DNA of 64,000 bases, taken from a bacterium. GTDB lineage: Bacteria; Lindowbacteria; 2-12-FULL-62-27. The stretch is from contig JACQOF010000127.1 in NCBI GenBank assembly GCA_016202645.1, positions 3,781-67,780 on the forward strand. Direction: 5' to 3'. The notes under the pieces were generated by a model. That model saw only the letters and a list, made by a program, of their open reading frames with translations. It had not been told where the DNA came from and made no database searches. Within the stretch, counting starts at the first letter, position 1. Each line of letters begins with the position of its first letter. The position numbers and the translations under genes were made by a program. This document shows positions 36,078 through 53,596 of the stretch, piece by piece.

Positions 36078-36815
36078 ATGCGCTCCGTGAACCGGGTGTT
36101 GGTAGCGGATGATGATCCGTCCATGCAGAGACTGATGACATCCGCTCTGGCGAAGAACGGATTTGAAGTTGACATCGCGCAGGATGGCCGTGGGTGTGTG
36201 CTCCTGGCGCTGACGCGGCGGCCCCGGGCGGTCCTGATGGACATCCAGATGCCCGTTCTGGACGGGCTCCGGGCGGTTGCGCTCTTCCGGAAGCTCGAAT
36301 CGCTTCGAGACATTCCGATCCTCATGCTGACGGCGTTGAAGTCGAAGGACGACGTCATGGAGGCCATTCAACGCGGGGCGCAGGATTATGTGGTCAAGCC
36401 GATCGAGGATTTCAAGGTGGTGGCGGACAAGATCCAAAAATTGATTTCAAAGGAAGCGCGGTCGGACCGCCCGATCTATAACAACCTGTCGTACCGTCTA
36501 AGTTCCGAACGCGACATCCTGCGGTTCCACCTGGCCGAAACCCTGACGGCCGACGCCGCCGCGGACCTGGACCGACTCATCGAATCCCTCTCTTCCCTCC
36601 AACCCTTGAAAATCGAATTCGATTTCCAGAACGTCCGAGACATCGCCGCCGGCGCCCTGGCCATCCTATCGGAAACCCGGGAAAATATCCTGGACGACGG
36701 CGGTGGCGCCGACCTCACGCATTTCACCTACCTCAAGGACAAGGATATCGGCCGACAGCTCCGGGAGATTTTCTCAGGCCCGCCAAGGACCGGCAAAAAA
36801 CGCCGGAGGGCCTAG
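36078..36815 (+). CDS. Response regulator, REC + STAS-like C-terminal domain
   Basis: VADDD, DIQMP, LTA, KP; C-terminal beta/alpha pattern KIEFDFQNVRDI. Confidence 0.8.
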   Translation: MRSVNRVLVADDDPSMQRLMTSALAKNGFEVDIAQDGRGCVLLALTRRPRAVLMDIQMPVLDGLRAVALFRKLESLRDIPILMLTALKSKDDVMEAIQRGAQDYVVKPIEDFKVVADKIQKLISKEARSDRPIYNNLSYRLSSERDILRFHLAETLTADAAADLDRLIESLSSLQPLKIEFDFQNVRDIAAGALAILSETRENILDDGGGADLTHFTYLKDKDIGRQLREIFSGPPRTGKKRRRA

Positions 36816-36880
36816 CCGCTATCGAGATTGCGAGATTGGTATCAGACTTCGAGATTGGTATCAGATTGGTATCATATCAG

Positions 36881-37837
36881 ATTGGTATCAGACTTTGAAT
36901 TATTGAATTATTAGGGTAGTCTACTCGTTGCATGGGCTATATAGTTCGTGAATACGTCACAGGTTACTGGTATCATGTATATACGCGCGGTCAGCGCCGA
37001 GAACCCCTATTTTTTTCTCCGGGAGATCGCGTTCGATATCTCAGTTTACTTGATCAAGAACTCTACAGACGCGGCGGAAACATCGGCAGTTTTACGCTGA
37101 TGACCAATCATGTGCACCTCTTGTTGAGGATGGGTAAGACGCCCCTCGGAGACATTCTTCAATTCGCACATTCACAATATGCCAAGGACTTCAACGCACG
37201 ACGTGGGACAGTTGGACACGTCACCCAAGGTCGGCCCGGAGTCAAAATTGTTCTGGATGACGCCTACCTATGGGCACTGGTTGGCTATTTGCATCGTAAT
37301 GCCCTCGAAGCCCGAATCGTGAAGCGCGTGACAGACTATAAGTGGAGTTCGTGGTATTGGTTTGAAGGCCAGAAGTGCGATTGGATCAAGTTGAAAAGTT
37401 GGCGTTTTCCGCCAGGATTCGACGGGCGCAAAACCAGGACAGCTTTTCGGAATGCCGTGGATCGAGGCGAACACGACTGGCCGGAAGGAAGGGGCTTCGT
37501 CGGAACACAGGATCAATGGGATATGCTCGAGCGGAGAAGACAGGTGGGACGACCCGCACAAAAGTACAAAGAACGGCGGGGGCGAAGGGAGATGGCAGAG
37601 ATTGCGGCAGACTTGGTCAAGGCCACCGGACTTACCATACAAGAACTACAGGGGCCAAGCCGAAAGCGAGATGTCAGCAGTGTACGGCATCGTGTGATGG
37701 CCCTGATGTTTGAGGAAGGCTATGGAGCTTCGGAGATCGCAAGATGGTTTGGCCGCACTCCTGGAATAGTCTCCAAGACCCACGGAAGCTGAACCCCGAA
37801 ATCCTAATAATTCAATAATTCAAAGTGTGATACCAAT
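36881..37837. mobile_element. Inverted-repeat-bounded Y1/HUH element
   Basis: 35-bp IRs at 36881-36915 and 37803-37837 (34/35 match); AT-richer than the flanks. Confidence 0.8.
36932..37792 (+). CDS. Y1 HUH transposase (RAYT/TnpA-like) with DnaA-C-like HTH tail
   Basis: YHVYTRG..REPLF, LMTNHVHLL (HUH), YLHRN, YKWSS; C-terminal GLTIQELQGPSRKRDVSSVR. Confidence 0.9.
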   Translation: MGYIVREYVTGYWYHVYTRGQRREPLFFSPGDRVRYLSLLDQELYRRGGNIGSFTLMTNHVHLLLRMGKTPLGDILQFAHSQYAKDFNARRGTVGHVTQGRPGVKIVLDDAYLWALVGYLHRNALEARIVKRVTDYKWSSWYWFEGQKCDWIKLKSWRFPPGFDGRKTRTAFRNAVDRGEHDWPEGRGFVGTQDQWDMLERRRQVGRPAQKYKERRGRREMAEIAADLVKATGLTIQELQGPSRKRDVSSVRHRVMALMFEEGYGASEIARWFGRTPGIVSKTHGS

Positions 37838-38656
37838 TCGGATACCAATTCGTGATACCAATTCGGGGCGGGCCGATGAGGCGACCGGGCGGGTCCTGCG
37901 ATGCGTCACCACGCCTTCGTAGTAAAGGACATTTCCGGTTTCGTCCGTGGCGGACCGCACCGACTCTGAAATGTTCACCGGGTGGCCGTCGAACCTGCGC
38001 CACGTCATCGCCAAGTCCTGCACGGCGCCCTTCCGTGCCATCAGGTATTGCCAGCGACTGCAATCCGCGGGTTGGGCAATGAGGTCCCGGAACAAATTGG
38101 CGGCGAAAAGCTCCCGACGGCCCGGATACCCCAGCAGCGAGGCCAGGGAGTCGGTGCAGTCCAGGATCTCGCCCGTCAGGGACGCCCGGTACGTTCCGGC
38201 CGACGTCTCGCCAAAGAGTCCCGGATCGGCCGCCTTCTGGAGTCTTTTTTCCAACTGATCGACGCGCGATTCCAGGCCCGTCTGCGTCAAAACCGTCCGG
38301 GCCGCCGCCTGCAGACGGGCCAGGAATTCCTCGCGGTCGAAGGGTTTTCGGACGTAATCGTTCGCGCCGGACTGGATGCCGGACACGACGTCGAGGACGG
38401 TGTTTTTGGCCGTGAGAAGAATGATGTATGTCCGGCGGCCGCGCGAGGACGCGCGGACTTTGCGGCACAGTTCCACCCCGTCCATGCGGGGCATCATCCA
38501 GTCCAGGATCGCCCATTGCGGAGGATCGACCGTCTGGAAACTCCGCCAAGCCTCGACCCCGTCCCGGGTCACCGTTGATTCGATGCCCATCCGGTCGAGC
38601 AGACTTTTCAAAAGGCGTCGGCACGCCGGGTCGTCGTCCGCGATCAGGGCTTTCAT
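37820..38656 (-). CDS. REC-PAS protein, probably 3'-truncated
   Basis: IADDD, LDWMMP, LTAK, KPF; PAS ends YYEGVVTH and the frame stops inside the element's IR. Confidence 0.75.
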   Translation of the reverse strand: MKALIADDDPACRRLLKSLLDRMGIESTVTRDGVEAWRSFQTVDPPQWAILDWMMPRMDGVELCRKVRASSRGRRTYIILLTAKNTVLDVVSGIQSGANDYVRKPFDREEFLARLQAAARTVLTQTGLESRVDQLEKRLQKAADPGLFGETSAGTYRASLTGEILDCTDSLASLLGYPGRRELFAANLFRDLIAQPADCSRWQYLMARKGAVQDLAMTWRRFDGHPVNISESVRSATDETGNVLYYEGVVTHRRTRPVASSARPELVSRIGIRIGITL

Positions 38657-53513: not shown

Positions 53514-53596
53514 GGATTGGGATTGGATTGGGATTGGGGCCGGGTATTGACATTATTGACATTCCGAATGTCAATAATGTCAATACCCGGCCCCAA
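53514..53596. repeat. Perfect 63-bp palindrome preceded by GGATT(G) stutters
   Basis: 31-bp arms at 53534-53564 and 53566-53596; lies between convergent genes. Confidence 0.9.

Follow-up and report, generated by a model that had tools for sequence, protein, structure and literature searches.

Nested junction repeats at the inverted-repeat tips of a TIRtron-type Y1/HUH element and its relatives

What are the short direct repeats that lie at the outer edges of a Y1/HUH nuclease element, and could they be the work of the enzyme encoded between those edges? The question is raised by a 64-kb stretch of a Lindowbacteria contig (JACQOF010000127.1; "the window" hereafter means this whole stretch), which has a G+C content of 61.3% and carries an element of 50.8% G+C consisting of one nuclease gene between two inverted-repeat arms. 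Directly outside each arm, a few flank bases together with the first bases of the arm's outer tip are reiterated in an array, here called a stutter. Stutters of this kind were found to be family-wide and specific to repeat tips. The arms are modular, the catalytic residues are intact, and the nested duplications run outward from the tips and follow each enzyme's own repeats, even where these lie far from the gene.

An earlier note on this DNA had described inverted repeats matching at 34 of 35 positions around the Y1/HUH gene, and a repeat search recovered them as described. The two 35-nt arms are complementary at 34/35 positions (97%), are separated by 887 nt, and lie 16 nt upstream of the start codon and 10 nt downstream of the stop codon (Table 1). 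Read inward, the left arm is made up of a tip, (ATT)GGTATCAGAC (36881-36893), two copies of TTGAATTA (36895-36910), and then TTAGG; the right arm, in the minus-strand reading, is ATTGGTATCACAC TTTGAATTA TTGAATTA TTAGG. By Tandem Repeats Finder (TRF), a period-8 doublet of TTGAATTA was reported inside each arm, at 36895-36912 and 37806-37823. Copies of the window type that are dispersed in the genome, both solo and paired (contigs C115 and C125), share a conserved tip that begins GGTATCA, corresponding to 36884 in the left arm. The 35-mer arm itself was found only at the window element, with up to 3 mismatches allowed. No self-complementary hairpins were found in the flanking inverted repeats by sequence and repeat analysis of the flanks.

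The single mismatch between the arms is a G on the left and a C on the right at the 11th arm base, which is tip position 8 counted from GG (36891 and 37827). Were the two arms to pair as single-stranded DNA, this position would give a G-G mismatch, which is possibly a recognition feature. A gene-less arm pair on C125 does not have the left-G/right-C difference.

For the junctions, the earlier note had counted four copies of AGATTGGTATCA on the left and three of GATACCAATTCG on the right, and both counts hold. AGATTGGTATCA starts at 36833, 36852, 36863, and 36879, the only 4 matches in the window; the mean in dinucleotide-preserving shuffles was 0.14, and a count of 4 was reached in 0 of 100. 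GATACCAATTCG starts at 37829, 37841, and 37854, again the only matches (3) in the window, with a shuffle mean of 0.24 and a count of 3 likewise reached in 0 of 100. On the left, the units do consist of flank bases (CGAG/ATT) plus tip, as had been claimed, but they are not four equal copies: the tip prefix varies, and the copies are nested and unequal in length. The right array, read on the minus strand, is CGAATTGGTATCA / CGAATTGGTATC, followed by CGA and the repeat arm, so that its units are a CGA(ATT) flank with 6-7 nt of tip. The left and right arrays have differing flank bases and are both oriented toward the element. A pre-existing microsatellite split by insertion was considered and rejected, because the units are side-specific and each carries a tip prefix facing the element.

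To put a number on such arrays, a tandem score was used that measures self-similarity at periods of 4-20 over 60 nt of outer flank and the adjoining 10 nt of tip; among 5000 random 70-nt genome windows, 1.1% score at least 11. The left end of the window element scores 16, a value reached by 0.5% of the random windows, and the right end 12, reached by 0.9%.

The arrays were also compared over 36600-38100 with Logan contigs from four runs of one groundwater study. Contigs X1 and X2, possibly of the source sample, span the entire interval with 0 differences, and contigs of a third sample that is not the source (X3) cover 36600-37097 and 37696-38100, including both stutters, again with 0 differences. 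Since contigs of three samples from an independent assembler reproduce both arrays exactly, the arrays are real.

The source genome (2.9 Mb in 146 contigs, 82% complete, 60.8% G+C) encodes 11 members of the family, with at most 44% identity to the window protein and 19-42% identity in the paralog alignment. All 11 are flanked, close outside the open reading frame (ORF), by their own inverted repeats of 26-40 nt. These are built on one plan: an outer tip of ~10 nt, which is GGTATCA[G/C]AC in the window and GGGGTCAG-like in most relatives, followed by a head-to-tail doublet of an element-specific ~8-mer. Outer tips in the genome include GGGGCCGGG, GGGTACGGA, GGGGTCAGACC, GGGGACAGGC, GGGTCAGACC, GAGCTCAGACC, CAGTGCCAGG, and (A/C)GGGGTCATTC. 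The paralog doublets, which lie ~9-14 nt into the arm, are built from TATTGACA, TTGCAAGA, TACGTTTT, ATTGGTTT, TAAGTTGT, TATTGAGT, TTAGTTTG, and others. At the score threshold used for other genomes, a doublet is registered in 8 of the 11 arms. Beyond the genes, each family has from 1 to ~20 extra arm copies, often as back-to-back inverted pairs resembling REPINs or miniature inverted-repeat transposable elements (MITEs).

When the complete gene-flanking ends of the source genome were scored, 11/21 reached at least 11 and 15/21 at least 8, and none of 22 control windows placed on the inner side, just within the arms, reached 8. Among dispersed tips, 21/75 scored at least 11 and 42/75 at least 8; the 75 include a few places that were each matched by two related queries, and no two of the 21 coincide. 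A stricter measure, in which the junction 7-mer (4 nt of flank and 3 nt of tip) had to recur in the outer 60 nt, gave 11/21 gene-flanking ends and 23/73 dispersed ends, against 1/21 and 1/73 for pseudo-junction controls placed 100 nt further out. The stutters are thereby tied, indirectly, to the enzyme's ends, as the earlier note had it: they recur at cognate tips, dispersed copies included, and not at G-runs or inside the element.

For relatives in other phyla, 80 loci were collected with a 5-sequence alignment. At the 39 of these loci that have a confident inverted repeat, 8/78 ends score at least 11 (6/909 control windows), and the junction word recurs at 9/74 ends (0/74 controls). Closer to the window, a 60%-identical orthologue (L100) is found in a same-family genome of another genus, at a different locus. 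Its arm reads GGTGCCG[G/C]ACA TAGACTTA TAGACTTA TTGGC, and each of its ends carries a stutter of two copies in which the tip prefix is 7 nt long (CGTCAGATTC+GGTGCCG; TGTGGGAAT+GGTGCCG). It also keeps the left-G/right-C difference of tip position 8, which falls at about 2050 and 1095 when read on the minus strand. Isolate genomes were sampled as well: in five genomes 25 loci were examined, 13 of them with an inverted repeat score of at least 14, and clear arrays were seen at 4/25 complete ends. Desulfobulbus alkaliphilus DSM 24258 accounts for three of these, and the fourth is on the complete chromosome of Sporomusa acidovorans. Two Sporomusa acidovorans loci, L126 and L128, have the same repeat arms, with an array at L126 only. 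Stutters are common in the source genome, rarer elsewhere, and not a binning artefact. The survey of homologues proposed by the earlier note thus turned up inverted repeats with variable junction repeats in paralogs, in L100, in other phyla, and in isolates. Separately, one or two in-frame TGA codons were noticed in the isolate homologues L126 and L128 (G042) and L117 and L123 (G041).

A stutter unit consists of a constant, side-specific flank piece and a tip prefix that varies between units. One array, for instance, reads GCAATC followed in turn by nothing, G, GGG, and the full arm; a second, GAAAGC followed by GGG, GGG, GGGGTACGG, GGGG, and the full arm; a third, GAAGAC followed by CGTGCCG, CG, CGTGCCGGG, CGTGCCGG, and the full arm. 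Prefix length was tallied over 90 extra junction copies in the source genome: 64 lie at 2-4 nt and 89 do not exceed 14 nt, the exception being a whole arm in tandem. The doublet begins at tip +9 to +14. With prefixes of 14 nt or less in 89/90, the copies therefore end at or before the doublet. For the window-type tips (window, L100, L018) a 7-nt prefix (GGTATCA|, GGTGCCG|, CGTGCCG|) is the commonest, at ~6/14 units counted by eye in a small sample. Microhomology is 0-1 nt in the clean two-copy cases (L100 left; CGAGATTG x2 in the window), and 1-5 extra bases (AG, AGAG, GAT, T) are present at some junctions. Rotation within G-runs makes the unit phase ambiguous. Many of the stutters at G-rich tips have the form (GGG/GGGG + 5-6 nt)n, e.g. 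at the C26 right flank, C60, C119:57530-57586, and C77:20644-20700, and could form G-quadruplexes on the strand that leads into the tip.

The protein encoded between the arms has an N-terminal RAYT-like catalytic domain, with the HUH motif as H60-V-H62 and Tyr119 in Y-LHR-N123; N59, H60, H62, Y119, and N123 are invariant in the alignment of the 11 paralogs. W138-S139-S140 is present, with S140 invariant in the paralogs, and may be the conserved serine motif that Quentin et al. (2018; PMC6006769) place downstream of the core. Relative to Y---NP, the signature given there for TnpA_REP class 2, the window sequence Y119-LHR-N123-A retains Y---N with P replaced by A, and NP is found in 3 of the 10 other paralogs. 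Pfam Y1_Tnp gave 23.9 bits, barely above its cut-off of 23; Bac_DnaA_C gave 21.6 bits (E 2.2e-4), under its cut-off of 31.5; and NCBIfam REP_Tyr_transpos (NF047646) gave 35.7 bits (E 6.9e-9), well short of the equivalog cut-off of 80. A profile of the 11 paralogs matched ISDra2 TnpA at its N terminus and DnaA domain IV at its C terminus (2hcb, 1l8q, 1j1v; E 5.8e-6 to 7.9e-5).

An AlphaFold2 model (mean predicted local distance difference test score, pLDDT, 82) has a low-confidence linker at approximately residues 181-220, where 10-residue blocks have pLDDT values of 49-60 and residues 206-216 fall below 50, followed by a predicted DnaA-domain-IV-like helix-turn-helix at approximately residues 221-285. 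With Foldseek, the best match to the model was 4er8_A, the E. coli RAYT-REP complex (E 1e-6, TM score 0.73 on the target), followed by IS608/ISDra2 TnpA. The C-terminal helices matched 3pvp_A, the M. tuberculosis DnaA DNA-binding domain, with a root mean square deviation of 1.0 over 67 columns.

These properties bear on a class that is already in the literature; what is attributed to the papers cited from here on applies to the portions of their text that were available. Di Nocera et al. (2013; PMC3733652) introduced the name TIRYT for RAYT-like genes with terminal inverted repeats and TIRtron for the unit, reported GGGGWSAS in many, though not all, TIRtron repeats, and described some of the repeats as small dispersed families, often dimers. 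Quentin et al. (2018; PMC6006769) described a subclass 2.1 of the Y1 superfamily whose members carry Bac_DnaA_C/HTH-like (HTH_23, HTH_28) C-terminal domains, equated it with the TIRYTs, and placed 20/26 of the Di Nocera examples in it; it is the second largest subclass, present in 14.9% of strains. The same authors found GGGGWSAS to be unlike a DnaA box, leaving the tail without an identified target. The window locus fits a TIRtron: a single-copy TIRYT-type Y1/HUH gene (RAYT-like TnpA_REP, of the subclass 2.1 type) between its own inverted repeats. It resembles subclass 2.1, especially 2.1.2, in a RAYT-like Y1 protein with HUH and Tyr that is among the longest of the superfamily, in the DnaA_C/HTH-like tail, in inverted repeats that take the place of REP hairpins around the gene, in arms that also form small dispersed families, often dimers, and in several divergent genes per genome. 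The element is a further member of the described TIRYT class, with an atypical tip, and the earlier note's "distinct HUH element" does not stand.

Two neighboring groups were rejected as the proper home of the element. RAYTs proper, i.e. the REPIN/REP systems typified by E. coli TnpA_REP (4er8; PMC8266576), supply the best structural match to the window protein and are also single-copy genes whose cognate short repeats are dispersed, often as inverted pairs. The window element, however, has no REP hairpins beside its gene and no GTAG heads, it misses the NF047646 equivalog cut-off, and the E. coli enzyme (chain 4er8_A, 165 residues) has no DnaA-like domain. TnpA of the IS200/IS605 insertion sequences (IS608, ISDra2) shares the HUH/Y1 fold and chemistry and the lack of a target-site duplication. 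Those elements, as far as the available text of PMC8266576 and PMC2817692 describes them, have subterminal hairpins and guide tetranucleotides instead of inverted repeats and occur in near-identical multiple copies, whereas the window element has inverted repeats and one copy, its arm is confined to a single element, its closest paralog is 44% identical, and Y1_Tnp is matched only at threshold.

The earlier note had also proposed that the DnaA-C-like tail reads the TTGAATTA repeats. One line of support was found for this, in the other-phylum sample. Of its 80 loci, 39 have a confident inverted repeat; a doublet of ~8 nt was detected in the arm at 9/20 of those with an ORF of at least 280 amino acids and at 0/19 of those with a shorter one, with a control rate of 3.5% in 744 windows. 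Because the doublet co-occurs with long ORFs, the DnaA-like tail may read the ~8-mer doublet, and the co-occurrence is suggestive only. The doublet becomes a candidate target where Quentin et al. (2018; PMC6006769), in the text available, derived no tail target from a comparison of the tip consensus with DnaA boxes.

The reading that we consider best, and mildly probable, is that the tail sits on the doublet and the Y1 domain at the tip, and that the stutters arise as side products when strands are cleaved and transferred there, marking the place where the enzyme works. The stutters themselves would then be neither part of the mobile unit nor binding sites. In outline, the C-terminal helix-turn-helix would bind the doublet as an iteron-type address and thereby place the Y1 domain on the tip. 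The Y1 domain would cleave one strand near the flank/tip boundary, forming a 5'-phosphotyrosine link, and this link would occasionally be resolved by a 3'-OH that already reaches a few bases into the same tip, belonging either to a nascent strand whose extension has halted at the bound protein or to the product of a second cut. A few flank bases and a tip prefix would be duplicated in tandem as a result, and repetition would give nested stutters on both sides. Each of these steps (binding, the position of cleavage, and the route of strand transfer) is inferred. Strand transfer fits the anatomy of the arrays because the units share their 5' start, vary at their 3' end, and stop before the doublet.

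Iteron-like addressing of an HUH nuclease has a parallel. At the origins used by rolling-circle Rep proteins (geminiviruses and rolling-circle-replicating plasmids), iterons beside the nick site address the nuclease in an enzyme-variant-specific manner, and the 8-mer doublets of the window family are likewise element-specific short direct repeats. They differ in that the putative binding domain here is DnaA-domain-IV-like, a replication function is lacking, and the gene is enclosed by two inverted copies. The strand-transfer step has a precedent in TnpA_REP, which according to the available text of Corneloup et al. (2021; PMC8266576) cuts single-stranded DNA at several sites 5' and 3' of the REP and whose Tyr-5'P link is resolved by strand transfer to any added oligonucleotide with a 3'-OH. 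Nunvar et al. (2010; PMC2817692) proposed that RAYT activity, and not slippage, builds BIME arrays. The clusters of BIMEs and REPs discussed there and by Di Nocera et al. (2013) are similar in that the arrays are hypothesized to be enzyme-driven rather than slippage-made, and different in that whole REPs are reiterated over tens to hundreds of bases, against 2-14 nt of tip and 3-15 nt of flank here.

Several results weigh against this origin of the stutters in cleavage and strand transfer. A stutter is missing from about half of the source-genome ends and from ~90% of those elsewhere. No variation in unit number was seen among the contigs of the three groundwater samples, which as contigs drop rare variants, so that the earlier note's description of the footprints as "growing" was not borne out. 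Most prefixes in the source genome are 2-4 G of a G-run, as polymerase slippage on G-runs would favor. The flank piece is 3-7 nt in most source-genome arrays and 9-15 nt in L100, L041, and L031. Its length is not fixed, and a single fixed cleavage distance is therefore unsupported; a fixed distance of 6 nt, which GAAAGC, GCAATC, GAACCC, GAAACA, GCAAAA, and GCATCA had suggested, fails in L100, L041, L031, and e22 (7-15 nt). As for the tail, 11/20 long-ORF loci fall under the doublet score threshold, and an ORF length of at least 280 amino acids served as a proxy for the presence of a DnaA-like tail. Finally, the window tip, GGTATCAG, fits GGGGWSAS at 6/8 positions only; the corresponding tips of paralogs in the same genome are GGGGTCAG, GGGGACAG, or GGGTCAGA.

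The preference of the prefixes for G-runs is also what would be expected of enzyme-independent slippage, in which a polymerase stalls at the tip, at the G-run or at a structure formed by the protein-free inverted repeat, and the nascent strand slips on microhomology. Most units in the source genome start with G and end in 2-4 G and so offer such microhomology, and once two copies exist further expansion is to be expected. Against slippage, ordinary non-repeat sites elsewhere in the source genome show recurrence of the junction word in only 1.2% of cases (GGGG, 36/3000; GGGGTC, 13/1103), compared with 34/94 repeat tips. The window and L100 tips are not G-runs, their junctions are blunt or have 1 nt of microhomology, and the arrays are confined to the outer side of the arm, as the empty inner controls attest. 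We regard slippage alone as an unlikely origin.

Arrays that are present at both ends, face the element, and include the tip motif might instead have been selected, as extra binding or cleavage sites (comparable to the end sites of Tn7 or Mu), as decoys, or as G-quadruplexes; several indeed have the form (GGGG-N5)n, and the L100 orthologue retains a two-copy array at both ends. Selection for function accounts less readily for units that are partial and unequal and carry side-specific flank bases, for copy number and spacing that differ among paralogs, among dispersed copies of one arm family, and between the window and L100, for the many ends without any array, and for the array at L126 against none at L128 in one isolate genome. 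Functional arrays are accordingly judged improbable.

The extra bases at some junctions resemble the products of end joining, and filled-in staggered breaks can give blunt duplications. On these grounds one could invoke footprints, left either by rounds of cut-and-paste excision with re-insertion at one site or by end-joining repair of breaks at the element's ends. Excision should, however, pair remnants of both ends, and the units on each side carry the orientation of that side only; there are no target-site duplications, and Y1 enzymes act on single strands, as the available text of PMC8266576 has it. This explanation is very unlikely. The last alternative, misassembly of short tandem repeats in a metagenome-assembled genome, could point to the 146-contig bin and to one contig of the fourth groundwater run (X4 record 10) that ends within the right stutter, but with arrays under 60 nt, exact agreement from an independent assembler in three samples, and recurrence of the pattern at dozens of loci as well as in isolates, one of them represented by a complete chromosome, its probability is negligible.

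If cleavage and strand transfer by the enzyme are the source of the stutters, TIRYT enzymes would act in vivo on the outer margin of their repeats and leave a heritable record there, through nested duplications of flank and tip prefix; we find this plausible but stop a little short of calling it probable. Neither the outer stutter nor the 8-mer doublet was found described in a full-text literature search, although Figure 9 and Additional file 5 of Di Nocera et al. (2013), which lay outside the available text, might show such repeats without comment. The modular arm, with a conserved tip and an enzyme-specific doublet seen only with long-tailed proteins, provides a candidate binding site for the tail. 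The stutters point to a zone of 10-20 nt at the flank/tip boundary as the most likely site of strand breakage and joining, and they offer a way of surveying activity across genomes from sequence alone. Should the reading be true, an undescribed mutational process would be tied to a widespread class of HUH nucleases, with the sites of cleavage and joining marked in genome sequence. Stutters made by the enzyme would also supply tandem-repeat variation from a new source in the immediate vicinity of genes, with fast-changing micro-arrays remodeling the ends of neighboring genes.

A case of the latter kind may be present in the window, where response-regulator genes converge on the element from both sides. 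The left regulator has its stop codon 7 nt upstream of the first left stutter unit. On the right, the last ~15 codons of the regulator (C terminus ...PELVSRIGIRIGITL) and its stop codon (37820-37822) lie within the right stutter and repeat tip; being encoded by them, this C terminus was therefore rewritten by the element and its stutter. For an empty site, three same-family genomes were compared; at ~65% nucleotide identity these are too diverged for a base-by-base reconstruction of the pre-insertion site. At one locus, L096 (G001:C3), a histidine kinase, a response regulator, and a convergent response regulator are syntenic with the window, and the two convergent regulators are ~45 nt apart with no Y1 gene between them. 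The right-hand regulator of L096 is apparently much shorter than its counterpart in the window. A promoter and terminator scan over 36700-38000 gave one minus-strand promoter-like site, which did not exceed shuffles, and no terminator, so that a promoter in the repeat arm is unsupported.

Table 1. Positions of the window element, its junction arrays, and the adjoining genes, with the loci of the paralogs in the source genome
Feature	Position	Strand	Details	Source
Response-regulator gene, outside element	36078..36815	+		ORF list, Pfam scan
Left junction stutter	36823..36880	+		sequence, direct-repeat family D1, TRF
Left stutter units			CGAGATTG 36823-30; CGAGATTGGTATCAGACTT 36831-49; CGAGATTGGTATCAG 36850-64; ATTGGTATCA 36865-74; TATCAG 36875-80; then arm	
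Left terminal inverted repeat	36881..36915	+	35 nt	inverted-repeat search, TRF
Y1/HUH nuclease ORF	36932..37792	+	286 aa	ORF list
Right terminal inverted repeat	37803..37837	-	35 nt	inverted-repeat search, TRF
Right junction stutter	37838..37866	-		sequence, direct-repeat family D2, TRF
Response-regulator gene, outside element	37820..38656	-		ORF list, Pfam Response_reg
Paralog loci L002-L011	contigs C95, C26, C103, C107, C74, C22, C88, C124, C60, C106			

Eleven family members in ~2.9 Mb is an unusual number. The paralogs, which combine Y1 and helix-turn-helix domains and each have their own family of repeat arms, are all at 51-59% G+C, below the genome value. Elsewhere in the window, at 53536-53594, a gene-less arm pair is found that consists of GGGGCCGGGTATTGACATTATTGACATT and its reverse complement with a 3-nt spacer. 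It is a MITE- or REPIN-like miniature of a TIRtron, belongs to the family of the paralog whose gene is on C95, and has a left stutter of its own, GGATTGGGATTGGATTGGGATT. A separate family of REP-like palindromes, TCATTCCCGCGAAAGCGGGAATCCAG, has a 17-nt core that occurs 184 times genome-wide and 5 times in the window (1971, 30168, 34603, 34651, and 50526), and this family also adjoins several of the repeat-arm copies.

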